Origin: an uncultured Muribaculaceae bacterium | Lineage (GTDB): Bacteria; Bacillota_I; Bacilli_A; RF39; UBA660 | Assembly: GCA_964518415.1 (NCBI GenBank) | Contig: CAZFGE010000001.1 | Span: 1-42,914, forward strand | Direction of reading: 5' to 3' | DNA: 42,914 nucleotides | Shown here: positions 25,438-42,700 of the stretch, in pieces | How positions within the stretch are numbered: position 1 is the stretch's first letter | Layout of the letters: the number at the start of each line of letters is the position of its first letter | Translations under genes and position numbers: made by a program | Notes under the pieces: model-generated | Databases searched by the model: none | What the model was told of the DNA's origin: nothing | The model's input: the letters and a program-made list of their open reading frames with translations, nothing else

Positions 25438-27000
25438 ATGATACTTAGAAAACCTTATGCAATATTAATTAAAAATTTTAAACTTATACATTTAATTTTA
25501 TCAGGTTTAATGTTATATTTACTTTTTAAGACATATAATATTTATGTTTTTTTAGGAGAATATTTAAAGACTATAGCTACAACTATAAGTAGTGATGTTA
25601 CTAAATCATTATTTGGATTTTTACCTGTAATTGTAAGTGCTTTTATAATTATATTTTGTTTAATTATATTTGCCTTGATGAAATTCAAAGATAAGCCTGT
25701 AAAATCATATTTTTATAGTATTATTGCTTATATAGCTTTTATAGTTTATTATTTAATAACTTTTTCAACTGTTAAGTCACTTGAGATAAATTTAGTTGAT
25801 GTTAGAACTTTAAAAATTCTTAGAGATTTAACTACAGTTGCTTTAATAGTTGAGTCAATTGGGTTTGTAATTGTATTAATTAGATCTACTGGATTTGATG
25901 TTAAAAGCTTTAACTTTAAAAAAGATTTAGAAGATTTAAATATTGAAACAGAAGACTCAGAAGAGTTTGAAGTTAATACTGAGATTGATACATCAAAACT
26001 TAAAAGATATGTTAAGAAAAAAATTAGACATTTTAAATATGCATATTTTGAAAATAAATTATTAATAAATATTTTAATGGTTATTGTTATTTTATTAGTT
26101 GGTGGCTTAGTTTATTATAACAAGGCAGTTGTTCATAAAAGATATAATATGAATGAAGCGTTATCTACATCAAGATTTAATTTTGTGTTTGAAGATTCAT
26201 ATGTTACTAAGTATGATTACAAACATAATTTAATTAGTGATGAAGAAGAAATACTTGTTGTAAGATTTAAAGTTAAAACATTATTTGGATATGCAAATAT
26301 AGGACTTGGTCATTTCCAACTTCTAATAGATGGTTTTAAATATCATAATCAATTAAATTTAAAAGATGATGTTTTAGATTTTGGCGAAGTATTTAATGAT
26401 CAAAGAATTAAAAAAGATTATCAAGAGTTCATATTAGTATTTAAGATCCCTACTGAATTTGAAAATAAAAAAATGAAATTAAAATATTTTGATACATTTA
26501 AAACTTATACAGTTAATATTAATCCGAAACCATTAAATAATACAGTTGATACTAAAACATATAATCTTGGAGAGACAATTGATTTTAAAGATTCTATATT
26601 AAAAAATACAAGCATTACATTAAAGAGTGTGAATATAGATAGTAGTTTTAAATCAGAATATAAGTCTTGCTATAATACATGTGCTACATATTATGAGTAT
26701 ATTGTTCCAAGTACAAATAATGGAGCTTCTAAAATTTTAAAATTAGATGGTTCTCTTAATTACACAGATTTAAATGATAAAATTAATACCTTATTTAAGT
26801 TTTTAAAAACATTCGCAACTATTAAATATTCAAATGGTTCTGAAATAAGTACTATGAATATAGGTATTAATCAAGTTAAACCTAAGAAGGGGAATGATTC
26901 ATCTTTATATATTGAGTTAACTGAAGAAGCGGCAAGCGCTGAACATTTGTCGATTGAGTTTAATATTAGAGGAAAAATGTATGCTTATAGTGTAAAATAA
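25438..27000 (+). CDS. Polytopic membrane protein with a C-terminal extracytoplasmic beta-rich domain (unknown function; first gene of the long co-directional block)
   Basis: 520 aa: about 5 N-terminal TM helices, an acidic linker, one more TM, then a hydrophilic domain of about 300 aa. Confidence 0.5.
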   Translation: MILRKPYAILIKNFKLIHLILSGLMLYLLFKTYNIYVFLGEYLKTIATTISSDVTKSLFGFLPVIVSAFIIIFCLIIFALMKFKDKPVKSYFYSIIAYIAFIVYYLITFSTVKSLEINLVDVRTLKILRDLTTVALIVESIGFVIVLIRSTGFDVKSFNFKKDLEDLNIETEDSEEFEVNTEIDTSKLKRYVKKKIRHFKYAYFENKLLINILMVIVILLVGGLVYYNKAVVHKRYNMNEALSTSRFNFVFEDSYVTKYDYKHNLISDEEEILVVRFKVKTLFGYANIGLGHFQLLIDGFKYHNQLNLKDDVLDFGEVFNDQRIKKDYQEFILVFKIPTEFENKKMKLKYFDTFKTYTVNINPKPLNNTVDTKTYNLGETIDFKDSILKNTSITLKSVNIDSSFKSEYKSCYNTCATYYEYIVPSTNNGASKILKLDGSLNYTDLNDKINTLFKFLKTFATIKYSNGSEISTMNIGINQVKPKKGNDSSLYIELTEEAASAEHLSIEFNIRGKMYAYSVK

Positions 27001-27051
27001 TATTGTTTAAAAAATAATATGTGTTATAATTAAATATGAGAGGATGATAAA

Positions 27052-27705
27052 ATGGGGAAGGTAAAATGTACACTTTTTTCTCTGTTTCTATTCTTAGGTA
27101 TGTCAAGAGTTGGCGCAGTAGCATGTGATAACTCAATGAAAGTTGACTATCAAAATAGAGCAAAGAATATTTCATATTCATATACTTATAACGATTCAAA
27201 TAATACTTTTAACATATTATTTACAAATGTAACAGATAGTTTATATTTGATTGACATGGATACTATGCAAGAGTATAGAAATAATCCTGAGATAACTATT
27301 TCAAATGTTAATCCTGGTAATAGTTATAGATATGGTGTATTTACAAGCGATTTAAATCCATGTAGTAATTCTAGCATTTATAATATTTATGTTACACTTC
27401 CATTTTATAATCCATATTATAGTGATCCTTTATGCGCAGGAATCAATACTTATAAATATTGCAAAAAATTTATTAACAAATCAGTTAGTTATGAAGAGTT
27501 TAAAGAAAATGTTACTAACTATAAAAATAGCTTTATAAATAATGATAGTAAAGAAGATAACAATAATGATAAAACAATTGTTGAAAAAATATTTAATAAA
27601 TTATTTGAATTTTATTTAGATTATTATTTTGTAATTCTTCCTTTAATTATAGTTATAACATTGATTGCTATTTATAAAGAAAATAAAAAGGATAGCTTGT
27701 TTTAG
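27052..27705 (+). CDS. Secreted Cys-containing protein with a C-terminal TM anchor (unknown function)
   Basis: Signal peptide ...SRVGAVA|CDN, 5 Cys in the ectodomain, hydrophobic tail YYFVILPLIIVITLIAIY followed by KENKKD. Confidence 0.5.
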   Translation: MGKVKCTLFSLFLFLGMSRVGAVACDNSMKVDYQNRAKNISYSYTYNDSNNTFNILFTNVTDSLYLIDMDTMQEYRNNPEITISNVNPGNSYRYGVFTSDLNPCSNSSIYNIYVTLPFYNPYYSDPLCAGINTYKYCKKFINKSVSYEEFKENVTNYKNSFINNDSKEDNNNDKTIVEKIFNKLFEFYLDYYFVILPLIIVITLIAIYKENKKDSLF

Positions 27706-27717: not shown

Positions 27718-30528
27718 TTGAGGAAAAAAATTAGTTTATTATTATTTATAATTCCTTTATTGGTTATTCCTTTTGTGAAGGTTGGAGCTGATAATAAATC
27801 GGGATATAAATATATAACTTCGGTTGAACGTACAAATTATAGAATTGATGTTTCCCAATATGGAATAAATAATGCAGCATTGCATAGAGGTAATTTTTAT
27901 AAAATAGAACTTGATGGAATGGTTGCTTTATGTTTAAAAGCTAACCATCCTATAATTCAAGGACATAAGTATGTATTTGACCATAAAATAAATACCAGTT
28001 CATTTGGTGGTAAGCTTTTAGTTAAGGCATTTGTATATGCATCTTCTAATAAATGTTCAAGTAATGAATGTACAATTGCCCGTGCTGCTGCTCAAATAGT
28101 TGCATGGAAGTATGACTGGGGATTTACATCATATCAACTAGTATCTGATTCGGATTATATTACAGGATATGCAATTGATTATTCTGAACGTATTTTGGGA
28201 GACCCTGCCCTATATAAAGCACTTTCTGCAGGATTAAAAAATTTCCCACATAAAAGTAGAACTATTGATGAAGAAGCATATAAACAATTCGTAAATATAC
28301 TTAATACTGAAATACCTGAAGGTGTTGAATTTGGTGTTTGGAGAGATGCTGAAAACTCTAATAACCAAGATGTTATTTCTTATGCATTAACTGAAGAAAC
28401 AAAACCAGTTGTAAATGAAACTTGTAAGTCAAAAATTTACAATAGATTATCAAGTTGTTATGGTAGTTATGGTACATTTGGTTATGCTTACGAAACTACT
28501 GAGGGTAATTGTTTAGATGGATATGATAAGAAAAAAAATAATGTCTATTCACGATTAGGTAAAAAAGAGGTAGATGTTGGCTCATATTGTAGAATGTATT
28601 GTAATAAACGTTTTTATGAAACATTACCAGGCAATATTGGAACTGCTGTCAATGTTGGAAGATATATTGTATGGCCAAATAATAATATTAATAATAATAG
28701 ATATAAAGTAAATGCTAATTTAGCTGAATATCCAATGGCACTTGCAATTGAAAAAGAATGTTATTTATCAGTTGATGCAAAAGTACTTGGAACTGATTAT
28801 ACAACAACTCTTAATAGTTATAATAATTATATAAATAGTATCAGAGGAATTTATAATACTTATGTTAAAGATAGTCGTACGTGCAAAACATATCAAAATA
28901 CTTATAACGAAAAAAAGAAAGAAGCTGATGATTATTGCAAAAATGTTGGTCCTGAGTATAAACCAAAAGAAACATGTGGAGAACCTTATTGGCATTGTAC
29001 TGAGTCTAATCCTAAAACAAAAGAATGCATACATGGCTCAACTTTTGCAGACTGTGAAGAAACTCAAGGACATAAAGATTGGGCAGCAAAAAATGAACAT
29101 TGTAATACTCTTCGAGGATATGAAAATGATGCTAAATCAACATTAGATAAATGTAATAATATACAAAACTATGTTGATGCTGTTGCAAATATTGTAAATG
29201 ATTTTAATAGTTGTATTAATTATAAAGCATCATTTAATATGAATTTTACTGCTCCTGGAGCTAGTGCATCATATAATGATGATGAATATGGTATGACAAT
29301 GATGTTAAAAGAGTCTAAAAAAGTTATAACATGTGATGGTTGTACATCTGGTATTGGTGGTATTAGTGTTAATAAAAATAATGTTGAGAAGAATTTAATA
29401 AGTAACAAAACAATACCAAATAAAATAACTGCAATAAATAATAGACAAATAATTGGAACAACACTTAAGTATTATGATTTAACTGATGGACATTATTATT
29501 TTGTTAATAAAGATACTAATAAATCAGTTAATTCAAATAGTGGACTTAAAAATTATTCTATAATTGGATTTACAAATATGCCTATTTCTTATAGTGCAAA
29601 TCCTAAAAAGAATTATGATTTGAGTATAACTATTCCAACTCTTACTGGTATGGCTAGTGATTTTGCTTCACTTGCAGCATCTAATAATTATGTATGTCAT
29701 TATAAGGTTACTAAAACAACACCTGGCACATGTGTATGTCCAGAAGGTACAAAACATGCAGGTGAGTCATTAGACTGTTTATCAAAAAATAATGATGGAA
29801 CATGTCTTGATAATCAAGAAGAATACTGTAATAGTGATGTTAATATACCACATGATTGTACTAATACCGATTTAACTTGTCCAAATGATCCAACTATGGA
29901 TTTATCAAGTTGTGTTAATGCCGGTAAGACATATAATTGGTGCGTAAATAATTTCTGTAGTGGTAATAAAAAATGGGTTTGTCCAGCTGGTACTAATGAA
30001 GGTATGGACTTAACAAGTTGTGTTATACCAATGATTATTAAAGGTTATAGTGAAAAAGATGCATATGAATATTGCAAAGATGTAACATGCCCTTACAAAG
30101 GAATAAAGATTATATATCGTGTTATCGATTTAACAAATCCATTCCCAAGTAAGGATGCAGATAGTATTGTTACTCAAAGAGATTTAAGAACTGGTATGTT
30201 TAATGATACTTTAAAAGGTAGATATCCTGGTTCTAACTGGAATAGTACTAAGGTTGTTAAGAGTAGAATCTTAAATAACAGAAATGTAGATGGTGATAAA
30301 GTATATGACAAAAAGCCATTATACGAGTTTACGCTTAATACTGAACGTATAAAAGCAATTAGAAATTATAATAGAAGTCAAAAAGATAGCTATGCTGATT
30401 TTAAACTTGATTGTTTAAGTGATAACTCAGCATGTATTAGTAGTTTTGTTCATAGTGAATTATCAGGATTAACTGGTGGAACATGTAGAAATATTACAAA
30501 GAATAGTTTCTATTCATGTCAAAATTAA
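27718..30528 (+). CDS. Large secreted Cys-rich protein (936 aa, unknown function; adhesin or tip-protein candidate)
   Basis: TTG start 6 nt after AGGAGGTG. Signal peptide. More than 40 Cys, including a thrice-repeated CPxGTxxGxDLxSC-like motif (CPEGTKHAGESLDC, CPNDPTMDLSSC, CPAGTNEGMDLTSC). Confidence 0.55.
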   Translation: MRKKISLLLFIIPLLVIPFVKVGADNKSGYKYITSVERTNYRIDVSQYGINNAALHRGNFYKIELDGMVALCLKANHPIIQGHKYVFDHKINTSSFGGKLLVKAFVYASSNKCSSNECTIARAAAQIVAWKYDWGFTSYQLVSDSDYITGYAIDYSERILGDPALYKALSAGLKNFPHKSRTIDEEAYKQFVNILNTEIPEGVEFGVWRDAENSNNQDVISYALTEETKPVVNETCKSKIYNRLSSCYGSYGTFGYAYETTEGNCLDGYDKKKNNVYSRLGKKEVDVGSYCRMYCNKRFYETLPGNIGTAVNVGRYIVWPNNNINNNRYKVNANLAEYPMALAIEKECYLSVDAKVLGTDYTTTLNSYNNYINSIRGIYNTYVKDSRTCKTYQNTYNEKKKEADDYCKNVGPEYKPKETCGEPYWHCTESNPKTKECIHGSTFADCEETQGHKDWAAKNEHCNTLRGYENDAKSTLDKCNNIQNYVDAVANIVNDFNSCINYKASFNMNFTAPGASASYNDDEYGMTMMLKESKKVITCDGCTSGIGGISVNKNNVEKNLISNKTIPNKITAINNRQIIGTTLKYYDLTDGHYYFVNKDTNKSVNSNSGLKNYSIIGFTNMPISYSANPKKNYDLSITIPTLTGMASDFASLAASNNYVCHYKVTKTTPGTCVCPEGTKHAGESLDCLSKNNDGTCLDNQEEYCNSDVNIPHDCTNTDLTCPNDPTMDLSSCVNAGKTYNWCVNNFCSGNKKWVCPAGTNEGMDLTSCVIPMIIKGYSEKDAYEYCKDVTCPYKGIKIIYRVIDLTNPFPSKDADSIVTQRDLRTGMFNDTLKGRYPGSNWNSTKVVKSRILNNRNVDGDKVYDKKPLYEFTLNTERIKAIRNYNRSQKDSYADFKLDCLSDNSACISSFVHSELSGLTGGTCRNITKNSFYSCQN

Positions 30529-30537: not shown

Positions 30538-30939
30538 ATGAAAGAGTCATTTTGGAGTGTATTAATAGTAATGCTTGGAGTATTATCTATTGCATTTATT
30601 TACTTTTTTCAAACTATAACATCAACTGATGAACAAAACTATACTATCTTAAAAGAAGTAACAGAAGCCGCTATGTGGGATTCTGTTGACTGGGCTGAAT
30701 ATAGAGCAACAGGAAACACAAGAATACATAGAGAAAAGTTTGTTGAAAACTTTCAAAGAAGATTTGCTGAAAGCGTTTCTTTAGGAAATGTTTATAATAT
30801 AAAAATTTACGATGTAAGTGAATATCCACCTAAAGTAAGCTTGAAGGTTTCATCGAAATTAAAATCAAATGTGACCGATGAAATGGTTGAGTTCGATATT
30901 GTAAATAAAATTGATGCAATATTAGAAACTCCATATTAA
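30538..30939 (+). CDS. Small N-terminally anchored protein (pseudopilin-like architecture, unknown family)
   Basis: 133 aa: MKES followed by a single TM helix and a globular domain of about 100 aa. RBS GGAGG. Confidence 0.4.
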   Translation: MKESFWSVLIVMLGVLSIAFIYFFQTITSTDEQNYTILKEVTEAAMWDSVDWAEYRATGNTRIHREKFVENFQRRFAESVSLGNVYNIKIYDVSEYPPKVSLKVSSKLKSNVTDEMVEFDIVNKIDAILETPY

Positions 30940-30959: not shown

Positions 30960-31814
30960 ATGAATAATTTCGTAATAGCAATTAGAAGATTTTTCCAAAA
31001 CAAAAATACAGTAACAGTTATAGGAGTAATTCTTATATTAGTTGTATTATTTGTTGGATACAAAATTCAAATCAACAAAGCAGTAGAACCAGTATCAGGT
31101 ATACCAGTTGCTACTCAAACAATTCAACCAAGAACATTGATTGAAAATGATATGGTATCAACTATTCAAGTTGCACCTATCGTATTATCTGATAATGTAA
31201 TCAGATCAAAAGCCGCAGTAGTTGGAAAATATACAGCTGTAAATACAGTAGTTCCAGAAGGAAGTATGTTTTATAAAAATACAGTTGTAACAAAAGATGA
31301 ACTTCCAGATGCTGCATTTGTAGATATCGAAAAAGGACAAATACCATATAACTTCCCAGTTACTATGGCATCAACTTATGGTAACTCAATTTATCCAGGA
31401 AATTACATTGATATTTATATGAAATCAATGAATGAAAATGGAGAGTTAATGGTTGGTAGATTAATCGAAAATGTTAAAGTATTAGCAGTTAAAGATTCTC
31501 AAGGAAAGAATGTATTTGAAAATTCTGAAGAAACAAGAGTTCCTGCATATATAATCTTTGGATTAGATTATGAATTAAATATTTTACTTAGAAAAGCAAG
31601 TTACATGGATGAATTCCAAGTAGAATTATTCCCAGTGCCACATGGTACACAAGTTAAAACTGGCGATGGTGAGACTATCGTAAGTAGTCAAACATTAAAA
31701 GATTTCATAAATGCTAATACAGTACCTAACGATGAAATAACTGCTCAACAAGAAACTGATGCAGCAAAAGAAACTGTAACAGATACTACTAAAAACACTA
31801 AAAAAGAAAGCTAG
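30960..31814 (+). CDS. CpaB/RcpC-like Flp pilus assembly protein
   Basis: N-terminal TM. SAF-like segment (IQPRTLIENDMV...VVGKYTAVNTVVPEGSMF). PGNYIDIY and ENVKVLAV segments typical of CpaB. Immediately upstream of the secretion ATPase. Confidence 0.55.
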   Translation: MNNFVIAIRRFFQNKNTVTVIGVILILVVLFVGYKIQINKAVEPVSGIPVATQTIQPRTLIENDMVSTIQVAPIVLSDNVIRSKAAVVGKYTAVNTVVPEGSMFYKNTVVTKDELPDAAFVDIEKGQIPYNFPVTMASTYGNSIYPGNYIDIYMKSMNENGELMVGRLIENVKVLAVKDSQGKNVFENSEETRVPAYIIFGLDYELNILLRKASYMDEFQVELFPVPHGTQVKTGDGETIVSSQTLKDFINANTVPNDEITAQQETDAAKETVTDTTKNTKKES

Positions 31815-31820: not shown

Positions 31821-32963
31821 ATGGAAGACAGTATGTTTTCCCAAATTGATTTTGGGGATTTACAACAATACTTAGACAATGACGATATAACAGATATTTC
31901 ATATGATAATGGTGGACAAATTCACTTAAAAACATTATCAAGAGGTATTTTTAGGATAGAAAATCCTAACATAAATAATGCATTTATGGAAAAATTAGCG
32001 TTCCAATGCTCAAACGTAATGGGTAAGACATTTAATATGGCTCATCCATTCCTTGATGCAGAAGGTTCTGAACTTCGTTTAAACTTTGTTCATGAATCTA
32101 TTGCTAAAAATGGTATAGCTTGTGTTATTCGTAAAACACCAGCTAAAATCAGACTAGAAAAAGAAAAATTACTAAAAGAAAAATATATTGATTTAGATAT
32201 ACATGATTTTTTAATACAATGTGTACAAGGACATTGTAATATAATTGCTTGTGGTGAAACTGGTTCTGGTAAAACTGAGTTTATTAAATACTTAGCTTCT
32301 AAAACTAAACCAGATGAAAAGTTAATAACTATAGAGGATACTTTAGAGTTACACTTAGATAAAATATTCCCACATAGAGATATTGTTACAATGAAGACTA
32401 ATAACATAGCATCTTATTCAGATGTACTTGTTACTTGTATGAGACAGAATCCAAAGTGGATTTTGTTATCAGAGGTACGTAGTGCTGAGGCAGTAATGGC
32501 GGTAAGAAACTCTATTTCATCAGGTCACTATATCTTATCAACAATACATGCTGATAGAGCATCTTCTATACCTAACCGTATGTACAGTTTGCTTGAATCA
32601 AATCAAGATATGGATCAATATATGAAATCAGTTTATAGATATATACAAATTGGTGTATATATTAGAGGTTATCAAGATAAAGCTACTAAACGATTTGTTC
32701 GTGAGATAGCTGAAGTAACAGAATTTTATGTTACAGAAGATAACGAACCAAAATACAATGAAATTTATAAAAAGACAACAAGTGGTCATGTTGTTAGACA
32801 TAAACCTTCAAAATATTTAATTGACTATCTTGATAGACAAGGTGTTACATTAGATGAAAACCTTATTAAAGAAGGTGAAAGTGGAACACCACTTACTAAT
32901 AATGTAAGTAGTCAACCTAGTGTTGAACAAACTCAAGAAGTCATTGAAACAATTGGTGAATAA
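31821..32963 (+). CDS. Type II/IV secretion ATPase, CpaF/TadA/VirB11 family
   Basis: Walker A GETGSGKT (32253-32276), Asp box ITIEDTLEL, Walker B-like KWILLSEVR, His box STIHAD, 380 aa. Confidence 0.8.
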   Translation: MEDSMFSQIDFGDLQQYLDNDDITDISYDNGGQIHLKTLSRGIFRIENPNINNAFMEKLAFQCSNVMGKTFNMAHPFLDAEGSELRLNFVHESIAKNGIACVIRKTPAKIRLEKEKLLKEKYIDLDIHDFLIQCVQGHCNIIACGETGSGKTEFIKYLASKTKPDEKLITIEDTLELHLDKIFPHRDIVTMKTNNIASYSDVLVTCMRQNPKWILLSEVRSAEAVMAVRNSISSGHYILSTIHADRASSIPNRMYSLLESNQDMDQYMKSVYRYIQIGVYIRGYQDKATKRFVREIAEVTEFYVTEDNEPKYNEIYKKTTSGHVVRHKPSKYLIDYLDRQGVTLDENLIKEGESGTPLTNNVSSQPSVEQTQEVIETIGE

Positions 32964-32975: not shown

Positions 32976-33884
32976 ATGATTTCAGTAATTACATTTTTAA
33001 TCATAGCTTTTATACTTGTCTTTGTAATGGCCTATAGATATAATTCAGGAGATAATTTTTATAAATATATATCAAAACAATCTAACTTTTTATATGATAA
33101 GTTTGCTCCTTATTCATTTAAAGAAATTAGAAAAAAAGTTAAGGATTTAGGACAAGAATATACTAAGAAACAATACATGATTCAAATATCTGTATTCTCT
33201 ATAGCAGCTGCTATTATATCTTACCTATATTTTTATAACTTATTAATTTCATTAATTTATATTATTGCAGCAAACGCTGTAATTCCAGTACTTACATATT
33301 ATAGATGTAAACGTATTTATTCAGAATTCATTTTTGAACAAATACAAGTTTATACGACAAATGTTATTATGGAATTCGCAACTACTCAATCATTTGTTAA
33401 AGCACTTGAAGGTGTATATGATTCAGGTGTCTTAGAAGATCCTGTTAAAAGTGATGTTAAAACAATGATTGATATGTCATATGAAAATGGTACAATTGAT
33501 GCTGCTGTTGAATTTATGAATGAAAAATATGATTATTATATTGTAAGAAATATGCATCAATTATTCATTCAAATTACAAATGAAGGTTCTAAAAACTCAA
33601 GTGATGCATTAGAAAACATGTCACTTGATATCGATATGCTTGTTGAAAATGTATATCGTGATAGAATGGACAGAGCTCAATTCCATAAGAAATTTTTACA
33701 ATTTGGTATAGTTTTATATTTAATGGTAATGTTAGTACAATTCTTACTTGGAACAGAATCTTATATTAAATTACTTGATACTAATTTCTTAGTTCAAGTA
33801 CTATTACATTTAATAATTATAATTAACTCTTATTTCTTACTTAACGGTGAGAAATACTATAATGAGAATGTGGGGGCTGAATAA
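32976..33884 (+). CDS. TadB-like platform protein (T2SS-F domain family)
   Basis: 302 aa with TadB-like topology: N-terminal TM, a TM pair near aa 65-110, a cytoplasmic helical domain of about 120 aa, and two C-terminal TMs. Follows the ATPase. Confidence 0.5.
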   Translation: MISVITFLIIAFILVFVMAYRYNSGDNFYKYISKQSNFLYDKFAPYSFKEIRKKVKDLGQEYTKKQYMIQISVFSIAAAIISYLYFYNLLISLIYIIAANAVIPVLTYYRCKRIYSEFIFEQIQVYTTNVIMEFATTQSFVKALEGVYDSGVLEDPVKSDVKTMIDMSYENGTIDAAVEFMNEKYDYYIVRNMHQLFIQITNEGSKNSSDALENMSLDIDMLVENVYRDRMDRAQFHKKFLQFGIVLYLMVMLVQFLLGTESYIKLLDTNFLVQVLLHLIIIINSYFLLNGEKYYNENVGAE

Positions 33885-34670: not shown

Positions 34671-34698
34671 TTAGAACATATAATGTTCTAATTTTTTT
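34671..34698 (+). terminator. Rho-independent terminator after the TadC-like gene
   Basis: Stem ttagaacat (34671-34679) / atgttctaa (34683-34691), then T7. Confidence 0.7.
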
Positions 34699-34836: not shown

Positions 34837-34865
34837 TTGATAATTATTAAATATAGTGTTATACT
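34837..34865 (+). promoter_or_regulatory. Sigma-A-type promoter of the pilin-like gene set
   Basis: TTGATA (34837-34842), 17-nt spacer, TATACT (34860-34865). RBS GGGTGGTGA precedes ATG 34900. Confidence 0.55.
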
Positions 34866-34899
34866 ATTATTGTAAAAATATAATAAGGGTGGTGAGATA

Positions 34900-35099: not shown

Positions 35100-35525
35100 A
35101 TGAAAGAAGCAATTGGTCATATACCATTATACAATTTTTTAATTGTATTTATTGTTATTACATTTGGCTTTTTATCTGCAACGCTTACTTACTATAAAGC
35201 TTTTAAAGTTAATAGTAAAATAGCTTATGCTTTAGAAGAGTTTGAGGGCTATAATAGTGAGTCTATTAAAGAGATAAATAGAGTATTAGGTACACTTGGA
35301 TATAGAAACGGAAGAGTTTCTAAATGTCCAAATAAGAAAATTGGACAAGCACTTAATGTTAAAGGAATTAATCATCAAGTGTGTATTTATGAATCAAAAC
35401 CTAAAAATGGATACTTTAATTATGGTATAGTAACCTATATTTATATGGATGTTCCTGTACTTGGAGGAACATTCAAAATACCTGTATATACAGAATCTGA
35501 AAGGATATTTAAATTTTCAAGTTAG
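35100..35525 (+). CDS. TadE/pseudopilin-like protein
   Basis: Leader MKEAIG followed by a hydrophobic helix. Globular domain with a Cys pair. Paralog of 35538-35981. Confidence 0.45.
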   Translation: MKEAIGHIPLYNFLIVFIVITFGFLSATLTYYKAFKVNSKIAYALEEFEGYNSESIKEINRVLGTLGYRNGRVSKCPNKKIGQALNVKGINHQVCIYESKPKNGYFNYGIVTYIYMDVPVLGGTFKIPVYTESERIFKFSS

Positions 35526-35537: not shown

Positions 35538-35981
35538 GTGAGAGAGGCAATTGGTAATAGTTATGTGCTTAATTTTATCATCACTTTTATTATCCTTTTT
35601 ATGCTTATATTTGTTGGTATGTCAACATTTACAAAAGCATTTAAAGTAAAAAATAAAATTGTTGATACAATTGAAAATTATGATGGTAAGGTTGATAATA
35701 GTAATCGCTTAAATAGTGATATTCAAGCAGAAATAAATGAAAAGTTAGGTAGTATAGGTTATAAGATAGATAAAACTAGTGAATGTAAAACAGATGGTAG
35801 ATTTTCAAATGGAAAATTACTTTCCAAAGATAGTAACTATAGATATTGTGTTTACAAATTTACTACGTCAAAAGGTGACTATTATGGAGTTACTGCATAT
35901 GCATACTTAGAAATACCTTTAATAGGCGCTAAATTAGAATTCCCAGTATATGGTGAGACAAAAATATTCTATGATTTATAG
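35538..35981 (+). CDS. TadE/pseudopilin-like protein
   Basis: GTG start. Leader (M)REAIG followed by a hydrophobic helix. Collinear with the previous protein (LG.[IL]GY...C...C[IV]Y...Y[IL].[DI]P..G....[IF]PVY.E[ST]). Confidence 0.45.
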   Translation: MREAIGNSYVLNFIITFIILFMLIFVGMSTFTKAFKVKNKIVDTIENYDGKVDNSNRLNSDIQAEINEKLGSIGYKIDKTSECKTDGRFSNGKLLSKDSNYRYCVYKFTTSKGDYYGVTAYAYLEIPLIGAKLEFPVYGETKIFYDL

Positions 35982-35995: not shown

Positions 35996-37006
35996 ATGAA
36001 TGTAATTATTTCAAATAAACATCAATCAACTTTAGAAATGCTAGATATAGATATAATTAAATCTTTAAATGGTGAATTTGATGTTGATGATATTATTAGT
36101 CAATTTCAAAATTTCTTTTTTCAAAGAATGATTATTGATATAACTGCTTTAAAGAATTATAAAGATGTTAAAACACTTCAAAAATTGTCTATATCTTTAG
36201 ATATGGATAAAATAATTCTTTTACTTGATGATTCTGTAGATGATGGAACTGGTGAGTTTTTATCTAAACTTGTTTCAATGGGAATTTACAACTTTACACG
36301 AACTGTTGATGGCATAATGTATTTATATAACAATCCAAATAGTTATAGAGATGTTGCGCATATTCAACAACTTGATGTGGCAAGTTCAAATGAGTCAACT
36401 CCTGTAAGTACTACAGTAGTTGAGAATATTTATACTGGTACACGTGTTATTGGTATAAAAAATGTTACAAAGCAAACAGGAGCAACTACACTTTCATATA
36501 TGATGAAAAAACAATTAGAGAAACATTATAGTGTTGTAGCACTTGAAGTTAATAAAGATGAATTCAGATATTTTAGAGATAAAAATATGTATTCAGTTAA
36601 AGATGTTGAACTTGGTAATGCTATAGCAAAATATAATGATCGTGATGTTATTATTGTAGATGTTAATGATTCTGCTCAAGCTGAAAGTGTTTGTGATGAT
36701 ATAATTTATTTAGTTGAACCATCTATTATAAAACTTAATAAATTAATGAATGTTAACCCTAATGTATTTAAAAAGATTAAAGGTAAGAAGATAATTCTAA
36801 ATCAAAGTATTTTATCTCAAAAGGATGTACTTGATTTTGAATATGAATCTGGTGTTAAAATTTACTTTAATATGCCACCTTTAGATGAAAGAGAAAGAAG
36901 TATTCATATATTAAACAAATTTTTATATATGTTAGGTTTTTCTAAACAACAAAGTTTAGAAGAAGAAAATAAAAAATTTAGTATTTTAGGTTTATTTAAA
37001 AAGTAA
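35996..37006 (+). CDS. TadZ/CpaE-like protein (receiver-like N-domain plus MinD/ParA fold with degenerate P-loop)
   Basis: The C-terminal half reads VIGIKNVTKQTGATTLS where KGGxGKT[ST] is expected. VIIVDVND has a Walker-B-like position. Its location in a Tad-like cluster matches TadZ. Confidence 0.35.
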   Translation: MNVIISNKHQSTLEMLDIDIIKSLNGEFDVDDIISQFQNFFFQRMIIDITALKNYKDVKTLQKLSISLDMDKIILLLDDSVDDGTGEFLSKLVSMGIYNFTRTVDGIMYLYNNPNSYRDVAHIQQLDVASSNESTPVSTTVVENIYTGTRVIGIKNVTKQTGATTLSYMMKKQLEKHYSVVALEVNKDEFRYFRDKNMYSVKDVELGNAIAKYNDRDVIIVDVNDSAQAESVCDDIIYLVEPSIIKLNKLMNVNPNVFKKIKGKKIILNQSILSQKDVLDFEYESGVKIYFNMPPLDERERSIHILNKFLYMLGFSKQQSLEEENKKFSILGLFKK

Positions 37007-37082: not shown

Positions 37083-37430
37083 ATGATTAATGCTTTAGTT
37101 TACTGTGGTGGAGTTGATATTCCAGACGTTATTCCTAACATGGTACATTTATTAATTTTAGGTATCCAAATCTTTATTCCAATCGTTTTAATCGTACTTG
37201 GTATGTTAGATATGGGTAAAGCTGTTATGAGTAATGATGAAAAAGTAATGAAAGAAAACCAAAATAAATTAATTAAAAGAATTATTTATGCAGTATTAGT
37301 TTTCTTAGTTGTTGCTATTGTTCGTACAGTAGTAGGCATGGTTACTAGTGTTGGTGGAGAAGATACTTTAGTTGATGACGGATCTATCAAAAACTGTATT
37401 CATGTATTTGTATCTGGAACAGGTAAATAA
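37083..37430 (+). CDS. VirB2/TrbC-like (pilin-like) small membrane protein
   Basis: 115 aa. Two hydrophobic helices flank a charged loop (IPIVLIVLGMLDMGKAVMSNDEK...LIKRIIYAVLVFLV). Strong RBS AGGAGG, its own terminator, and a position upstream of VirB6/B3/B4-like genes. Confidence 0.45.
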   Translation: MINALVYCGGVDIPDVIPNMVHLLILGIQIFIPIVLIVLGMLDMGKAVMSNDEKVMKENQNKLIKRIIYAVLVFLVVAIVRTVVGMVTSVGGEDTLVDDGSIKNCIHVFVSGTGK

Positions 37431-37526: not shown

Positions 37527-38504
37527 ATGAAAAAAACACTAAAATATATATTAATTACATCTATAATGATGTTTATTGGAATGAATAATGGATTGGCAGC
37601 TGATGTAGCTCATATGTGTAGATATTATCAATCAAACAATAAAGAATTGTTGGTTCTTACATATACAGAAGGCAATGCAGCTGATTCAACTTCTCAATTA
37701 AAAGATGTTCGTATTAACAAGGATAATAAATATACCGGTGAAAAGTGTCCTGAATTTTTAATGTTACAAACAAATGGTGTAAATACGATGTATGCATCAA
37801 CTAGTAAAGATAAATTAGAAAATCTTGCAAGTAAGTATAAGATTTCTAAAAATGATTATGAGATAATGAGTTTATATAGTATTGATGGTGTTGATGTATC
37901 TGTAAAAAAAATAGGCGATAAAGGTGGAAGCTTTGTACAAGTGTGTAAATATAATGATTTTACATTTTATGTGGATCATAACAGTAAACATGCTTGGGTC
38001 GAAAGTAAAAACTGTTATGGATATGCAGCAGAGTATAAGGCAAAATATGATTGGTTTTCAGATGGCTGTCCTGTAAATATATATAATGGATACACAGGAG
38101 GAAGTGAATGTATGTTTTCACTTTCATCAAGCTTTTGGACTACTTCTGAAAAGCAAATTCTATTAGAAGATAGTTATAAAAAACATAGTCCATCTGGTGA
38201 TTCAAATAATGATATCAATCTTTGTGATGATATATCTAATACAACTTCTCTTATAAAAAGTGCTTATAAAACTTTAAAATATTTAATTCCTGTTTTGATA
38301 ATAGTATTAAGTATTGTAGATTTTATAAAAGTTGTTGCAAATGGTGAAGACAAAGAATATAAAAATGCATGGAATAAATTTATTAAAAGAATTATTATTG
38401 GAATTGTTATTATATTAGTTCCAGTAATAATTGAAATGTTAATTGGACTTACAGGCTTATTTAATAATGGTGAGATTAACGAAATATTTTGTATTTTTAA
38501 ATAG
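37527..38504 (+). CDS. Secreted Cys-rich domain fused to a C-terminal VirB2-like two-helix module
   Basis: Signal peptide ...GLAADVA. An ectodomain of about 200 aa with about 8 Cys. The C-terminus LIPVLIIVLSIVDFIKVVANGEDKEYKNAWNKFIKRIIIGIVIILV aligns with the whole 115-aa protein. Confidence 0.5.
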   Translation: MKKTLKYILITSIMMFIGMNNGLAADVAHMCRYYQSNNKELLVLTYTEGNAADSTSQLKDVRINKDNKYTGEKCPEFLMLQTNGVNTMYASTSKDKLENLASKYKISKNDYEIMSLYSIDGVDVSVKKIGDKGGSFVQVCKYNDFTFYVDHNSKHAWVESKNCYGYAAEYKAKYDWFSDGCPVNIYNGYTGGSECMFSLSSSFWTTSEKQILLEDSYKKHSPSGDSNNDINLCDDISNTTSLIKSAYKTLKYLIPVLIIVLSIVDFIKVVANGEDKEYKNAWNKFIKRIIIGIVIILVPVIIEMLIGLTGLFNNGEINEIFCIFK

Positions 38505-38522: not shown

Positions 38523-40508
38523 ATGAAAACAAGCGTTGGTATTAATTTAGCTCGTTCTATATTTTCGGTTATTGATAAAGCAATATATTCACTTATTGCA
38601 GCTATATATAATATAATTGAAGAATTAGCTTCTAATGTATCTGTTTTTAATGAATCAACAATTGATGATTTTGCTAAAAGAATATATGTTTTTATCGGAA
38701 TTGTAATGGTTTTTAAAGTAACATTCTCTCTTATAAATTATTTGGTTAATCCAGATTCAATGAATGATAAAAATTCTGGAGTTGGAAATGTTGCTAAAAA
38801 TATTGTGATTACATTAGTACTATTAATAATTACTCCTTATGCATTTGACTTTTTATACAGAGCTCAAAATGCAATATTAAGTGATAATATTTTACCTCAA
38901 GTTATTCTTGGAACAAGTGATACTAAATCAGTTGGTCAAAAGTTTCAAATGGCTGAAGACTGTGAAGTCGTTGAGATAGATGATCCAGGACAATTTATGG
39001 CTCTAGTTGCACTTAGACCTTTTTATGGGGTTAATAAAGGTGCATCTATTGAGTCAATAAAGGATGAATATTGTAATGCTAATTATACTGCAAGTGATAT
39101 GTTAACAGAAAGTATTTATAATGCTGAGGATAATGACATGTATATTATTGATTATTCATTCTTTATGTCAACAGTGTCTGGTGTAATTGTACTTGTTTTA
39201 ATGTTAACAATAGGAATGGATATTGCACTTAGAATTATTAAACTAGGTTTCTTAGAAATAATTGCTCCAGTTCCTATAATTTCATACGTTGATCCTAAAT
39301 CTGGAAAAGATGGTATATTTAAAAAATGGTTAAAAGAAGTTATTAGAACATGGATAAGTTTATTCTTAAAACTTGCTGTATTATATTTTGCAATTTATAT
39401 AATAAAAGTTTTAGATGATGCTCTTGTTAATGTAAGTAATCATAATTATGATATGTGGATTTCATTATTCCTACTTATTGGAGCATTAATGTTCGCTAAA
39501 CAATTTACTAAATTAATTGAAGATATATTTGGAGTAAAATTAGATGGTATGGGCTTACATCCAATTAAGAAAATACAAGAACAAGCAATGTTTGGAAAAC
39601 AATTAACAAGTGCACCTGGTAAAATTGGAGCTGCTGCTATAGGTGGAACAGTTGCTGCAGCAGGTTTTGCAATTGGTAGAGGTTTAAAAATAAAAGATAT
39701 AAGACAAAATCAAAGACAATTTAATGATGAAACTAGAAGACTACAACAACTTAGAGGTAAAATGCTTGATACAAGATCAGTTATTAGCAATTTAACACAT
39801 TCAGGTGCTTCAGAGGAAACTATTCAAGGCTATAAAAATATTCTAAATAATCAAAAAAATGAATTTGCAGAATTAAACAAAACAAGACATGAAACTGCTG
39901 CTAATTTAGCTAAGGCTAAAGAAAAATATGAAAAATCAACTACTGATGAGGATGGAAATAAATATTTCAGTGCTTCTTTCCCTGGGTTAGCAGGAACAAT
40001 GCAAACTTTACGTGGAGTTAAGGAGGGTTTTTCAGCAAAAGATATTAAAGGCTTAAGCGGTGTAATAACTGCTGGAATTAACGCAGCTAAGGTAGCTACT
40101 AAACGTACAAATGATTTTGATAAATTTGGATATTTAGATAGACTAAAAGATTTAGGTACAGATATAACTGGTGTTAAAAATGAATCTGGTACTACAAGTA
40201 TTGTAAAAGAACATTTAAAACAACAAAAAGAAAGCTTAAGAGATATTGAAAGTGCTTTACGTGCTCAAGAAGTAAGATTTGGTAATCTTCCTGCTGGAAT
40301 GATTAAAATGGAGTCTGATGATAAAGGTAAACATAAATATGTAGTTGCTTCAAGTAATTCTGATGTTTGGAATAATAACCCTACAATTAGTAGAGACTCT
40401 ATTGTTTCTGAAGTAGAAAATTGGGAATCAATGCGTGAAGCTCAACGTAAGATTGAAAAATCTAACAAAGAATATGAAGATGTACTTGCAATAAATAAAG
40501 CAAAATAG
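38523..40508 (+). CDS. VirB6/TrbL-like polytopic membrane protein with a long C-terminal coiled-coil region
   Basis: 661 aa: about 6-7 TM helices in the first 340 aa, then a Gly/Ala-rich segment and a charged helical tail. Positioned between the VirB2-like and VirB3/VirB4-like genes. Confidence 0.45.
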   Translation: MKTSVGINLARSIFSVIDKAIYSLIAAIYNIIEELASNVSVFNESTIDDFAKRIYVFIGIVMVFKVTFSLINYLVNPDSMNDKNSGVGNVAKNIVITLVLLIITPYAFDFLYRAQNAILSDNILPQVILGTSDTKSVGQKFQMAEDCEVVEIDDPGQFMALVALRPFYGVNKGASIESIKDEYCNANYTASDMLTESIYNAEDNDMYIIDYSFFMSTVSGVIVLVLMLTIGMDIALRIIKLGFLEIIAPVPIISYVDPKSGKDGIFKKWLKEVIRTWISLFLKLAVLYFAIYIIKVLDDALVNVSNHNYDMWISLFLLIGALMFAKQFTKLIEDIFGVKLDGMGLHPIKKIQEQAMFGKQLTSAPGKIGAAAIGGTVAAAGFAIGRGLKIKDIRQNQRQFNDETRRLQQLRGKMLDTRSVISNLTHSGASEETIQGYKNILNNQKNEFAELNKTRHETAANLAKAKEKYEKSTTDEDGNKYFSASFPGLAGTMQTLRGVKEGFSAKDIKGLSGVITAGINAAKVATKRTNDFDKFGYLDRLKDLGTDITGVKNESGTTSIVKEHLKQQKESLRDIESALRAQEVRFGNLPAGMIKMESDDKGKHKYVVASSNSDVWNNNPTISRDSIVSEVENWESMREAQRKIEKSNKEYEDVLAINKAK

Positions 40509-40528: not shown

Positions 40529-40855
40529 ATGAATAATAATATGTATTTGATACCGGCTAATAGTAAAAAATCAATGATGATATTTGGAATGTTTTATCCT
40601 TTTGATTTAATCCTATTTGGAACAGGATTATCAATATCTCTTCTTTTATTGATGATTCTTCCACTTGATAGCTTAGTAGTTAGTCTACTAGCTATCTCAC
40701 CAGGATTAATCACGGGACTTCTAGTATTCCCTTTACCAAATTATCACAATACTTTAACAGTATTAATTGATATATTTGATTTCTTTACTACTAGACAAAG
40801 ATATGTATGGAAAGGTTGGTGTGTGATGGATGAGCTCAAAAAAGATAAAGAGTAA
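40529..40855 (+). CDS. PrgI-family (VirB3-like) small membrane protein
   Basis: 108 aa with two TM helices. N-terminal IPANSKKSMMIFGMF...DL pattern. Immediately upstream of, and overlapping, the VirB4-like ORFs. Confidence 0.5.
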   Translation: MNNNMYLIPANSKKSMMIFGMFYPFDLILFGTGLSISLLLLMILPLDSLVVSLLAISPGLITGLLVFPLPNYHNTLTVLIDIFDFFTTRQRYVWKGWCVMDELKKDKE

Positions 40856-41381
40856 ATATACAAATGATGAGTTCGTTCCAGTAAAAAGTATTACAAATGG
40901 AATGATTATCTTAGATAATAATGACAAAGTAAGTGGAATTAAAATTATGCCAAGAAATATATTTATAGCTGATCAAGATACTCAAAATGCTATAATTGCT
41001 AATTTAAGAAATGTTTATAACATGATAGATTACGAATTTTGGATTATAGCAGCTGATAGACCAGTTGATATAAATGTATTCTTATCTCAATTACAACTTT
41101 TATATAATTCAGTGCAAGATCAAGCTAGAAAGAAACTAATTATGGAAGATATTAATAAAGCAAATATGTTTATGGATAATAATATTGTTGATACAGAATA
41201 TTTCTTATTATTTAAAGAAAGAAACAATGATGTAGTAATGAAAAGAATTAGAAATTTAATTAATTCATTTGCTAGCGCAGGTTTAAATTCACATCAAGTT
41301 ACAAATGATGATTTAAGAATCATCTTAGATAACTTCTTAAATGGTGGACAAACTACTACATTTGGTACGGTGATTGGCTAA
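40830..41381 (+). CDS. VirB4-like ATPase, detached N-terminal segment
   Basis: 183 aa. Resembles the first ~180 aa of Firmicute VirB4/PrgJ/CD1110-type ATPases (VPVKSITNGMIILDNNDKVSGIKIMP.N..). Joined to the next ORF by a TAATG overlap. Confidence 0.45.
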   Translation: MSSKKIKSKYTNDEFVPVKSITNGMIILDNNDKVSGIKIMPRNIFIADQDTQNAIIANLRNVYNMIDYEFWIIAADRPVDINVFLSQLQLLYNSVQDQARKKLIMEDINKANMFMDNNIVDTEYFLLFKERNNDVVMKRIRNLINSFASAGLNSHQVTNDDLRIILDNFLNGGQTTTFGTVIG

Positions 41382-42700
41382 TGGATATTAAATCACAAAT
41401 AGCTCCTAAGGGACTTGAATTTAAAGCTTCTCACTTTGTAATAAGTGATAAATATGCATGTATATTAACAGCAATAACTTATCCAAGATATATAGCTCCA
41501 GGATACTTATCTAGTTTAACTAGTATGTCTGGAATTAAAGTTGTAATTAAACATATTCCACTACCTTTTAGTGCAATTTCTAAAATGCTTAATAAAGAGA
41601 TAGCTGATTTAAAACAACGTTATCAAGAAGAACATGATAGAACTGCACAAGAACGTATTAGACAAAATTATGAATCACTAGAACAATTCATATCACAACT
41701 TGCTGCATCACAATCTAAAATATATGATTTTCAAATGCATATCATGATAACTGCTAATACAGAAGAAGAATTAAATCAAAAGAAATTCCAAGTTAAAAAC
41801 TATTTGGATGCTATGGAAATAAGAGCAATTCCACTTAGATTTGAACAAGAAAAAGTATTAAAATCTATTTTACCAATTTATGGTAAACAAGATATAGAAG
41901 ATAGAATAGGTACACCAATTCCTGCACCTACAATTGCAGCTATGTATCCATTTATATTTGATAGTATAAAAGATCCAGGATTATCTACACTTCTTGGTGT
42001 TGATTTCTCTGGTGGTGTTATTCTATTTAATCAATTCTTATATCAAATCAAAAAAGAACATAATAGAAATAATGCTAACTTAATTATTCTAGGTACATCT
42101 GGTAGTGGTAAATCTACTGCAGCTAAGATTTTACTTAGAACTCATATTAGAAATAATTGTCAACTTGTTCTAATTGATCCAGAAGGTGAGTTAGAAGAAA
42201 TGACAAATAGATACGGTGGAGATTTCATCGACCTTGGTAAAGGTGGAGAATTCGGTATGGTTAACCCATTAGAGGTTATAATAGATGCTGATGAAGATGA
42301 AATTGCTAATGGTTTAGGTTACACTGTATTAACACGTACTTTACAAAGCGTTAAAGCATTTATGAAATATTATGATCCTTCAATTGAAGAAGATGTTCTT
42401 AATATGTTTAGTGAAGTACTACAAGAAACATATAGAAGATTTGGTATTGACTTTAACACTGACTTTACAAAATTTACATCTAAAGATTATCCAACTTTCA
42501 AGGATGTTTATGCAACTATAAGAGGTCGTTTAACATCTATGACTGAGAAAACTCAAGAGAGAGATGTAATGGAGAGACTTGAATTAAAAGTTAGACCAAT
42601 TGTTAAAGAATTAAAATATTACTTTGATGGACATACAACAATATCTACATCAAGTAACTTTATAACAAAAAAAAAAAGAGAAATAATCAATTCTGAATAA
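41381..42700 (+). CDS. VirB4-like conjugation/T4SS ATPase, truncated after the Walker A region (likely non-functional)
   Basis: IAPKGLEF....ISDKYACILTAITYPRYIAPGYL entry motif, Walker A GTSGSGKST (42092-42118), LIDPEGE motif. The ORF stops at aa 439, before any Walker B (DEAW-type) or C-terminal domain. Confidence 0.65.
   Translation: MDIKSQIAPKGLEFKASHFVISDKYACILTAITYPRYIAPGYLSSLTSMSGIKVVIKHIPLPFSAISKMLNKEIADLKQRYQEEHDRTAQERIRQNYESLEQFISQLAASQSKIYDFQMHIMITANTEEELNQKKFQVKNYLDAMEIRAIPLRFEQEKVLKSILPIYGKQDIEDRIGTPIPAPTIAAMYPFIFDSIKDPGLSTLLGVDFSGGVILFNQFLYQIKKEHNRNNANLIILGTSGSGKSTAAKILLRTHIRNNCQLVLIDPEGELEEMTNRYGGDFIDLGKGGEFGMVNPLEVIIDADEDEIANGLGYTVLTRTLQSVKAFMKYYDPSIEEDVLNMFSEVLQETYRRFGIDFNTDFTKFTSKDYPTFKDVYATIRGRLTSMTEKTQERDVMERLELKVRPIVKELKYYFDGHTTISTSSNFITKKKREIINSE

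Follow-up and report, generated by a model that had tools for sequence, protein, structure and literature searches.

The window analysed here, i.e. the whole stretch of 42,914 nucleotides from contig CAZFGE010000001.1 (assembly GCA_964518415.1, deposited as an uncultured Muribaculaceae bacterium), was shown to contain a locus of 18 open reading frames (ORFs) at positions 25438-42700, all of which are located on the + strand and are separated by gaps or overlaps of a few bases. The ORFs were lettered A to R in order, while related loci and related proteins are referred to by L- and P-numbers, respectively. The locus consists of a Tad-like unit (a DUF5411 protein, a CpaB-like protein, an ATPase, two membrane proteins resembling type II secretion F (T2SS-F) proteins and three pilin-like proteins), followed by a type IV secretion system (T4SS) unit comprising two VirB2-like proteins, a VirB6-like protein, a VirB3-like protein and a VirB4 split over two ORFs. 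A preliminary description, made from the sequence of the window, had proposed such a co-directional block, and its ORF positions, orientation and spacing were all borne out. The single VirB4-like ATPase of that description was found to be truncated, as had been noted, but to be encoded by two ORFs (40830-41381 and 41381-42700). The features of the locus are as follows:

25438-27000, + strand: A, 520 aa, the N-terminal part hydrophobic and multi-span (by inspection), the C-terminal part large
27052-27705, + strand: B, 217 aa; by inspection, a signal-peptide-like segment at the N-terminus, several Cys residues and a hydrophobic anchor at the C-terminus
27718-30528, + strand: C, 936 aa, Cys-rich, with a signal-peptide-like N-terminus
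30538-30939, + strand: D, DUF5411 protein with an N-terminal membrane helix (Pfam DUF5411, E 1.8e-50), counterpart of pLS20 gene 36 and of a 119-aa ORF in pXO2
30960-31814, + strand: E, CpaB/RcpC-like protein with an N-terminal anchor
31821-32963, + strand: F, secretion ATPase of the CpaF/VirB11/FlaI superfamily (T2SSE, E 1e-24; motifs GETGSGKT, ITIEDTLEL and STIHAD)
32976-33884, + strand: G, polytopic membrane protein, putative TadB/TadC-type (T2SS-F-like) platform, counterpart of pLS20 gene 38
33884-34669, + strand: H, putative second platform protein, paralogue of G, counterpart of pLS20 gene 39
34670-34698, + strand: intrinsic-terminator-like hairpin with a U run (10-bp A/U-rich stem at 34670-34692), directly after the stop codon of H
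34837-34865, + strand: promoter-like site upstream of gene I (TTGATA, 17 nt, TATACT, preceded by TG; consensus match)
34900-35085, + strand: I, 61-aa pilin-like protein with the conserved N-terminus MKEAxGEAN(L/M)TVV, then a hydrophobic helix and a small head that contains Cys
35100-35525, + strand: J, 141-aa pilin-like protein in which a hydrophobic helix comes after M[KR]E[AS]IG
35538-35981, + strand: K, 147 aa, paralogue of J (J versus K, hhalign 100%, E 3e-51)
35996-37006, + strand: L, 336 aa, soluble, with a degenerate P-loop/MinD-like pattern recognised by eye only
37083-37430, + strand: M, 115-aa VirB2-like (T4SS_pilin type) two-helix membrane protein, homologous to the C-terminus of N
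37527-38504, + strand: N, 325 aa, with a Cys-rich extracellular N-terminal part and a VirB2-like C-terminal module (PF18895, residues 241-303, E 4e-5)
38523-40508, + strand: O, extended VirB6-like protein of the pLS20_p028/Mbov_0396/MMCAP2_0566 type, with a long C-terminal tail
40529-40855, + strand: P, 108-aa two-helix protein in the VirB3/PrgI position (size, position and weak profiles)
40830-41381, + strand: Q, N-terminal domain of VirB4 as a separate 183-aa ORF (VirB4_plasma positions 96-276, E 1e-15)
41381-42700, + strand: R, ATPase part of VirB4, 439 aa, truncated (matches to DUF87, the TraG P-loop and AAA_10)
42667-42914, unstranded: breakpoint at an A11 run, beyond which DNA homology is lost, followed by a reverse-strand ORF with GGVIY repeats up to the window end

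The best plasmid matches to ATPase F were found on Bacillus plasmids, and the transfer region of pXO2 was shown to be collinear with the locus. This region encodes an ORF of 119 aa that matches DUF5411 weakly (0.0016), an ATPase, homologues of G and H, small hydrophobic proteins, an annotated TrbC/VirB2, a large protein, a p028-type VirB6, a 104-aa protein, a split VirB4 and a lysozyme/C40 hydrolase, and differs in that a MobP2 relaxase is encoded further on. The ATPases of pXO2 and of a Bacillus velezensis plasmid matched F with phmmer E-values of 2e-42 to 6.5e-48, gene 38 of these plasmids matched G (hhalign 96.5%, E 1e-9) and gene 39 matched H (91%, E 1e-6), while D reached 21% against pLS20 gene 36. 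VirB4 is divided at the same point in pXO2 (222 aa covering positions 95-279, plus positions 303-887) as in the window (96-276 and 295-891), and in pLS20/pXO2/pAW63-type systems, which are related to MPF-FATA, it consists of parts of ~190-220 and ~630 aa. Further features in common with the pLS20 family are a large protein with a C-terminal anchor, a two-helix protein of ~100 aa, a wall hydrolase and VirD4, the likeness of P to its 104-aa pXO2 counterpart being one of position and size only. By homology, the locus carries a gene 37-type ATPase together with proteins of the gene 38 and 39 types, as well as a p028-type VirB6 with a split VirB4; the hydrolase and VirD4 of the pLS20 family are found in relatives of the locus, directly downstream.

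The published gene order of the pLS20 family is 36-41, 45-46, 48 (VirD4), 49 (extended VirB6), 50, 51, 52 (VirB4), 54 (VirB1) and 58 (relaxase), and in pLS20 all such genes lie within one conjugation operon; gene 37 is described as a 'putative VirB11', genes 38-41 are left unassigned and no pilus components are reported to be encoded (PMC8557374). A Tad-like reading of the pLS20 and pXO2 genes was not found in the literature searched. The statement in the preliminary description that Firmicute conjugation systems do not include a Tad machine does not hold, as pXO2 has the same composite, the pLS20 gene list follows the same order and the zrk4 plasmid (see below) carries a canonical Tad set. 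Its suggestion of a new composite apparatus was likewise abandoned, since pXO2 and the pLS20 family have the same architecture. The architecture itself is known from these plasmids; what is new is a chromosomal, relaxase-less, lineage-wide and strongly conserved version of it.

Compared with pLS20 and pXO2, the locus is chromosomal, with no relaxase, auxiliary relaxosome, exclusion or quorum-sensing genes nearby, and the CpaB-like protein E, protein L and the surface proteins A, B and C are additional to the plasmid gene set. VirD4 ends the locus in relatives, as opposed to preceding VirB6 in the pLS20 family, and no thioester adhesin was detected in the locus, which is a further difference from pLS20/pXO2-type systems. 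Identity to these systems is low (33% for the ATPase and ~27-28% for plasmid VirB4), and megablast searches of plasmid and phage collections with the locus returned no DNA match.

Conservation was assessed in ~160 related loci, which were anchored either on the ATPase or on VirB4, the VirB4-anchored set representing a metagenome sample. ATPase F was found to be encoded in at least 578 species-representative genomes, the best 80 relatives among species genomes being 73-85% identical. The record titles of these 80 refer to uncultured Tenericutes, Bacilli, Mollicutes and Mycoplasmatota (e.g. Acholeplasma sp. CAG:878 and Ca. Fimihabitans), with a few records under other names that are probably mislabelled bins; we take the lineage concerned to be the GTDB order RF39. 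No paper tying RF39 to T4SSs, conjugation or pili was found in the literature searched. The gene order was kept in most of the ~160 loci, a recurrence that places it far beyond chance. Of the ATPase-anchored loci, 50 extend at least 9 kb downstream, and in 45 of them VirB-side genes followed in the same order; in one of the five exceptions (L047) an insertion pushes the remaining genes out of range. Conversely, 37 VirB4-anchored loci extend at least 9 kb upstream, of which 28 contained pilin/L genes and 23 contained F, G or H. The co-occurrence of the two halves with conserved synteny, which the preliminary description had proposed as a check, was consequently confirmed.

The relatives were also shown to complete the locus. 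Downstream of VirB4, each of five distinct full-length relatives has genes for one or two wall hydrolases (NlpC/P60, SpoIID or glucosaminidase/CHAP), then one to three unassigned ORFs (one of ~200-250 aa) and a gene for a VirD4-type coupling protein (T4CP) of 674-703 aa, and the latter was present in 33 of the 34 VirB4-anchored loci with at least 7 kb downstream. The lack of a coupling protein and a hydrolase in the window, correctly recorded in the preliminary description, is an effect of the contig ending there, as both are encoded directly downstream in relatives. Beyond the coupling protein, four of the five relatives (L089-L092) carry VTT/DedA-type, RmuC and Lon genes, with a rhodanese gene in three.

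Sequence conservation was shown to be uneven within the locus. Identity across the lineage is ~60-90% for F, G, H, L, Q and R and only ~30-40% for A, B, C, N and O, a pattern that fits conserved cytoplasmic and membrane motors combined with fast-evolving surface parts. Within the lineage, identity amounts to ~75-95% for VirB4 and 63-86% for the coupling protein. In L077, which has the same upstream genes as the window, the ATPase is 76% identical, compared with 50-64% for dacF, spmA, spmB and rluB. Pairwise divergence was correlated between the two sides of the locus to the same extent (r 0.47) as within the Tad side (r 0.43), and 17 of the 18 ORFs have family-typical lengths.

With regard to the Tad-like unit, all three motifs named in the preliminary description (GETGSGKT, ITIEDTLEL and STIHAD) were found in F. 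The best NCBIfam matches of F were VirB11 (3e-30) and the TadA type (2e-24), all under their cut-offs, and PDB profiles gave nearly equal results for CpaF (5e-16), archaeal GspE (9e-16) and VirB11 (2e-14). In a small neighbour-joining tree, F formed a clade with the pXO2 and B. velezensis plasmid ATPases at 100% bootstrap, which lies apart from the CpaF clade and joins VirB11 at only 36% bootstrap. Grouping of the ATPase with VirB11, an outcome that the preliminary description had named as speaking against its Tad-type assignments, was not obtained at this bootstrap value, yet F was not cleanly separated from VirB11 either.

The assignment of E as CpaB-like, made previously by inspection, was upheld by matches to Pfam RcpC (5.7e-6, 26.7 bits, under the curated cut-off of 28.8) and to TIGR03177 pilus_cpaB (3.3e-9, also under the curated cut-off), and by an hhalign comparison with three annotated CpaB proteins (84%, E 7e-6, 192 columns). 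The claim of TadB- and TadC-like proteins was upheld in part. G had no direct Pfam match and reached 59% (E 9e-5) against six TadB/TadC proteins in hhalign, while 2 of 17 remote G homologues matched T2SSF (PF00482) at 2e-5. A link through an intermediate was obtained with the ORF that follows CpaF on the zrk4 plasmid, which matched G at 95.7% and TadB/TadC (T2SS-F) proteins at 93%. G and H are paralogous (hhalign 90%, E 1.6e-6), but H itself showed no direct T2SSF match in Pfam or hhalign. Two T2SS-F-type platform proteins are accordingly predicted to follow the ATPase, through remote homology only. PDB profile searches with the G and H families, including one with the remote-G alignment, gave nothing usable, and an AlphaFold2 model of G from a 26-row alignment (predicted local distance difference test (pLDDT) score 51) was too poor for a fold search.

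The three pilin-like proteins, so named by inspection in the preliminary description, share the strongly conserved N-terminal family consensus M[KR]E[AS]xG, followed by a hydrophobic helix; profiles lent the pilin assignment no support, as I showed no Flp profile match in hhalign and no Pfam family above noise. From its sequence, I is a candidate for the major fibre subunit and J for a minor pilin, and D, with its N-terminus MKESFW resembling the MKEAxG of I, J and K, is possibly a minor pilin-like subunit. K matched pXO2 gene 40 weakly (hhalign 8%). The family of ~60-aa pilin-like proteins to which I belongs keeps a Cys pattern (CC...C...C) in the short head, which implies disulfides or metal binding in a host that is presumably an anaerobe. 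No prepilin peptidase turned up among the profiled ORFs of the window, and such a gene may lie elsewhere in the genome. In L087, an ORF immediately downstream of the coupling-protein gene (18206-18324) was found to carry an N_methyl (type IV pilin/ComG-type) motif, so that these genomes may encode a prepilin peptidase at another site. In L075 (13283-16123; Acholeplasma sp. CAG:878), which has no VirB side, a small pilin gene is followed by a gene for a protein of 947 aa that combines an N-terminal methylation (prepilin) motif with a Big_3 domain.

Protein L had been described as TadZ-like by inspection of the sequence, and this was not supported by profile comparison (hhalign against TadZ, 0.4%). 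L is 58-88% identical among aligned relatives and had no tblastn match on plasmids, and its AlphaFold2 single-sequence model (pLDDT 39) was too poor for a fold search. At the start of the locus, A had no Pfam or NCBIfam match and occupies the same position in 68 related loci (median identity 33%), while B and C are syntenic in 69 (median 34%) and 54 (median 35%) loci, respectively. C is presumed from its position to be a surface protein or adhesin. It was also considered as a thioester adhesin and rejected as such, the match being an 11-residue, non-significant one and the Cys not being conserved in the family.

Within the T4SS unit, M and the C-terminus of N were shown to be homologous (hhalign 99.4%, E 3e-21), and 10 of ~25 members of the M/N family matched T4SS_pilin (PF18895). 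O matched the NCBIfam models pLS20_p028 (4.5e-13), MMCAP2_0566 (6e-10) and Mbov_0396 (9e-9), all under their cut-offs, and Pfam TrbL_4 at 1e-4, the latter being recorded for relatives as well. In the P family, whose members are 103-115 aa long in 39 loci, one member matched PrgI (0.001) and one TcpE (0.0024), and P itself resembled the ORF that precedes VirB4 on the zrk4 plasmid (hhalign 91%, E 9e-7). The division of VirB4 into Q and R is kept in relatives, PF26593 (TraC-like) being recorded for the Q counterparts, and the full-length R-type relative P0121 matched the VirB4_plasma model (positions 295-891, E 1.5e-102). An ORF annotated as TrbC/VirB2 is present within the transfer region of pXO2 (L094 8472-8750), at odds with the claim that Gram-positive T4SSs outside Patescibacteria have no VirB2 homologues.

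R shares 95% identity with P0121 up to the point where it ends, at 439 aa, while 117 of the 120 best VirB4 homologues listed are exactly 594 aa long. DNA homology to the closest relatives, L087 and L088, stops at the A11 run at ~42667-42700, i.e. ~660 nt from the end of the ~43.4-kb source contig. The sequence beyond (42701-42914, the GGVIY-repeat ORF) had no relative in any fetched locus, and no record exists of the exact truncated VirB4 product. Given the position of the A11 run near the contig end and the unrelated sequence that follows it, the truncation is likely to represent an assembly misjoin or a strain-specific lesion.

The terminator and promoter proposed between H and I fared differently. 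The hairpin with its U run was confirmed, the RNA fold of 34660-34905 having a z-score of -3.1; the consensus terminator scan had passed over it because it requires three G-C pairs. Promoter-like sites, including the one ahead of gene I, are as frequent in the region as in shuffled sequence, the DNA being AT-rich, so that only the hairpin carries weight for the operon structure. A Shine-Dalgarno-like sequence, AAGGGUGGUGAG, is present ahead of gene I. The position of the terminator after H implies that the pilin genes go with the VirB genes, apart from the presumed assembly ATPase. A YfhO-family gene sits exactly at the H/I junction in L089-L092, and a Fic/RhuM gene lies between the two VirB2-like genes (M/N junction) in L092 (5094-5936), from which the locus appears to tolerate insertions at operon joints.

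Five other systems were compared with the locus. The Tad/Flp (type IVc) systems share an ATPase gene followed by genes for two paralogous T2SS-F-like proteins, a CpaB/RcpC-like protein encoded upstream and several small proteins in which a short, charged leader with a terminal Gly is combined with a hydrophobic helix; unlike in these systems, the ATPase falls outside the CpaF clade, Flp and TadE matches are lacking and the locus contains no prepilin peptidase gene. The Tad secretin is not expected in a monoderm. A canonical Tad set (SAF/CpaB, a large AAA ATPase, a CpaF-family ATPase, T2SS-F proteins and Flp pilins with G/SPSLEY) was found on the zrk4 plasmid of a Mycoplasmatota bacterium (CP074574.1), on one strand with a VirB3-like protein and a split VirB4 (phmmer 7e-86). 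There, the Tad set begins two ORFs after VirB4, as opposed to preceding it, and the ATPase groups with CpaF (77% bootstrap), unlike F.

Mycoplasma integrative and conjugative elements (ICEs) supplied the best NCBIfam model for VirB4 (Mbov_0397, 343.9 bits, under the equivalog cut-off), and their Mbov_0396 and MMCAP2_0566 models were among the best for O; VirB4 is unsplit in the ICE model and split here. These elements carry a DDE transposase and are not known to include a Tad-like unit. The archaeal Ced/Ted systems resemble the locus in combining a VirB2-like pilin, a VirB6-like protein and a VirB4/HerA-like ATPase, the CedD model matching VirB4 at 3.7e-10, far more weakly than the bacterial VirB4 models; the VirD4 coupling protein of the relatives would point to export, unlike the import of Ced/Ted.

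The T4SS of Patescibacteria is chromosomal, mostly relaxase-less, has PF18895 pilins and is essential for epibiotic growth (PMC12102498, PMC12857230). The locus is similar in that it belongs to monoderms with reduced genomes, is chromosomal and lineage-wide, is related to MPF-FATA and encodes VirB2-like PF18895 proteins. Judged from these predicted components, a chromosomal, relaxase-less, lineage-wide T4SS with PF18895 appears to be the same arrangement in both, which does not imply kinship of the VirB4 clades. The two differ in phylum, and no Tad-like unit of ATPase and platform proteins is described for the Patescibacteria locus (PMC12102498, PMC12857230).

Taken together, these data suggest that the locus encodes one chromosomal machine of the pLS20/pXO2 T4SS class with a Tad-like fibre-assembly unit built in, a reading to which we assign a probability of roughly 70%. 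Several findings weigh against it. I, J and K lack the G/XXXXEY motif and match neither Flp nor TadE profiles in hhalign, and a phmmer search with two TadV-type queries among the + strand ORFs of 1.5 Mb of genome-derived related loci revealed no prepilin peptidase. L has no Pfam, NCBIfam or PDB-profile match, F is not placeable with CpaF rather than with VirB11, and the direct T2SS-F signal is moderate for G (59%) and absent for H in hhalign. Fibre production, joint action of the two units and the transported substrate are what we infer here. A tblastn search of 2.65 Mb of related loci with MobP2 and MobQ queries returned no relaxase, a result that covers two query families and flanking regions only. 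The pLS20-type systems, in contrast, have relaxase and relaxosome genes in their operon and are plasmid-borne and self-transmissible, whereas the context of the locus is chromosomal.

The remaining adverse findings concern linkage, and would equally be expected if a stand-alone Tad-like adhesion pilus (A-K) merely lay beside an unrelated T4SS (M to the coupling protein) with no functional coupling. L005, L026, L075 and L077 have housekeeping genes after the Tad side, in place of the VirB side, and an L122-type sub-lineage encodes M to the coupling protein with no Tad side within 10 kb. DUF5411/CpaF/platform clusters have been predicted to be secretion-related operons in Clostridia, where a T4SS was not reported (PMC9523054), and the region of the B. 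velezensis plasmid has DUF5411, ATPase and platform genes without VirB4 in the stretch read. The terminator between H and I and the unrelated genes tolerated at the H/I and M/N junctions agree with such an arrangement as well. Against it, the pairing recurs in three distant settings (this lineage, the pXO2/pLS20 family and the zrk4 plasmid), in one of which, pLS20, it is part of a single conjugation operon (PMC8557374). The terminator groups the pilin genes with the VirB side, apart from the ATPase, adjacency is retained in ~75-90% of loci, and the divergence of the two sides is as well correlated as that within the Tad side. We consider functionally separate neighbours unlikely.

That the window holds the interior of a larger conjugative element had also been suggested, and the locus does continue beyond the window. 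A conventional ICE, with its relaxase, oriT and integrase outside the window, would agree with core parts that are all of conjugative type, with plasmid and ICE systems as the closest relatives, with a window that ends within VirB4 so that its own downstream end is unseen, and with upstream flanks that differ between lineages, the flank being common to L077 only (this lack of flank conservation also counts against the one-machine reading). The surroundings argue otherwise: housekeeping genes adjoin gene A, no integrase flanks the locus in the relatives read, and the coupling protein of the five full-length relatives is followed not by a relaxase or integrase but by VTT-domain, RmuC and Lon genes (L089-L092) or the N_methyl pilin-like ORF (L087). 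In addition to the lack of MobP2 and MobQ matches, plasmid VirB4 is only ~28% identical, compared with ~75-95% within the lineage, and the GC content of the locus equals that of its flanks, with no plasmid or phage DNA match. An ICE is considered improbable, and the lack of a relaxase or integrase nearby, combined with lineage-wide conservation, suggests domestication as opposed to mobile-element spread. A decaying, no longer functional remnant of a conjugation system, also put forward on the basis of the 439 of 594 aa of VirB4 present in the window, is the least credible alternative: the other 17 ORFs are intact and of family-typical length, the break falls at the homopolymer near the contig end with unrelated sequence after it, and the relatives are under strong purifying selection.

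GC content is 22-31% throughout the window, the composition of the locus being that of its flanks, and the context of gene A is chromosomal. Upstream of the locus are tsaE-tsaB-rimI-tsaD, ABC transporters, a MarR regulator, a D-Ala-D-Ala carboxypeptidase, two Gate-domain (SpmA/B-like) proteins and a pseudouridine synthase gene ending at 24698. An insert of ~7 kb at 3742-11163, apparently within an ABC-transporter operon, ends in a large serine recombinase gene (9209-10741) and is flanked by a permease gene (2668-3462, - strand) and a truncated ATPase ORF (10747-11163, - strand); its cargo includes an S24/S26 signal-peptidase-like protein, a DUF5305 protein and a 743-aa protein with Listeria-Bacteroides repeats. 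At 17337-19045, the first gene of an ABC exporter pair appears as a 357-aa ABC_membrane ORF, a gap and an orphan C-terminal ABC_tran fragment (18674-19045), which suggests disruption by a frameshift, a pseudogene or a sequencing error. GT2 plus TPR and collagen-triple-helix-repeat proteins are encoded at 11242-12935 (- strand; GC 0.31 versus 0.22-0.27 around), and a Bro-N domain protein (a phage-associated domain) is encoded among metabolic genes at 14890-15708 (- strand).

If the locus does encode a single machine with a built-in fibre-assembly unit, a hexamer of ATPase F would sit on the paired platform G/H and build a thin fibre by pushing short pilin-like subunits out of the membrane, with I as the putative major subunit and J, K and perhaps D as minor ones. 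The CpaB-like protein E may guide this fibre through the wall, and the fast-evolving proteins A, B and C are probably adhesins or anchors. The translocation channel would be composed of the VirB6-like O, the VirB3-like P and the split VirB4 (Q/R), with the VirB2-like M and N at its outer face, and the coupling protein would pick cytoplasmic substrates. The fibre would then make or stabilise contact with another cell, while the channel moves a macromolecule. The substrate of a pLS20-type plasmid system is relaxase-bound plasmid DNA. For a domesticated system, proteins or relaxase-independent DNA passing between cells may be envisaged, the analogues being chromosomal transfer in mycoplasmas and the T4SS of Patescibacteria.

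More tentatively, and as a view that we hold to be doubtful at present, the locus may be a second independent domesticated T4SS that has become a core organelle of a reduced-genome lineage, after that of Patescibacteria, with a Tad-like fibre built in and used, upon contact, to exchange DNA, nucleotides or proteins with neighbouring cells or to acquire them, as opposed to spreading a mobile element. Its corollary, equally speculative, is that the pLS20/pXO2 class makes an unrecognised Tad-type conjugative pilus. Mating of pLS20 is efficient in liquid, and a conjugative fibre, if true, would account for this behaviour.

Among monoderms, VirB2-like pilins and the potential for a conjugative pilus have been reviewed as unique to Patescibacteria (PMC12857230). 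The locus and its plasmid relatives suggest instead a class of Gram-positive T4SSs with VirB2-like genes and a type-IV-filament assembly unit, contrary to that view and to the description of pLS20 (PMC12857230, PMC8557374). That hundreds of uncultured gut species carry the chromosomal version in highly conserved form suggests that contact-dependent exchange is central to their biology, and the locus supplies a defined gene set for cell-cell interaction in a poorly known gut lineage.

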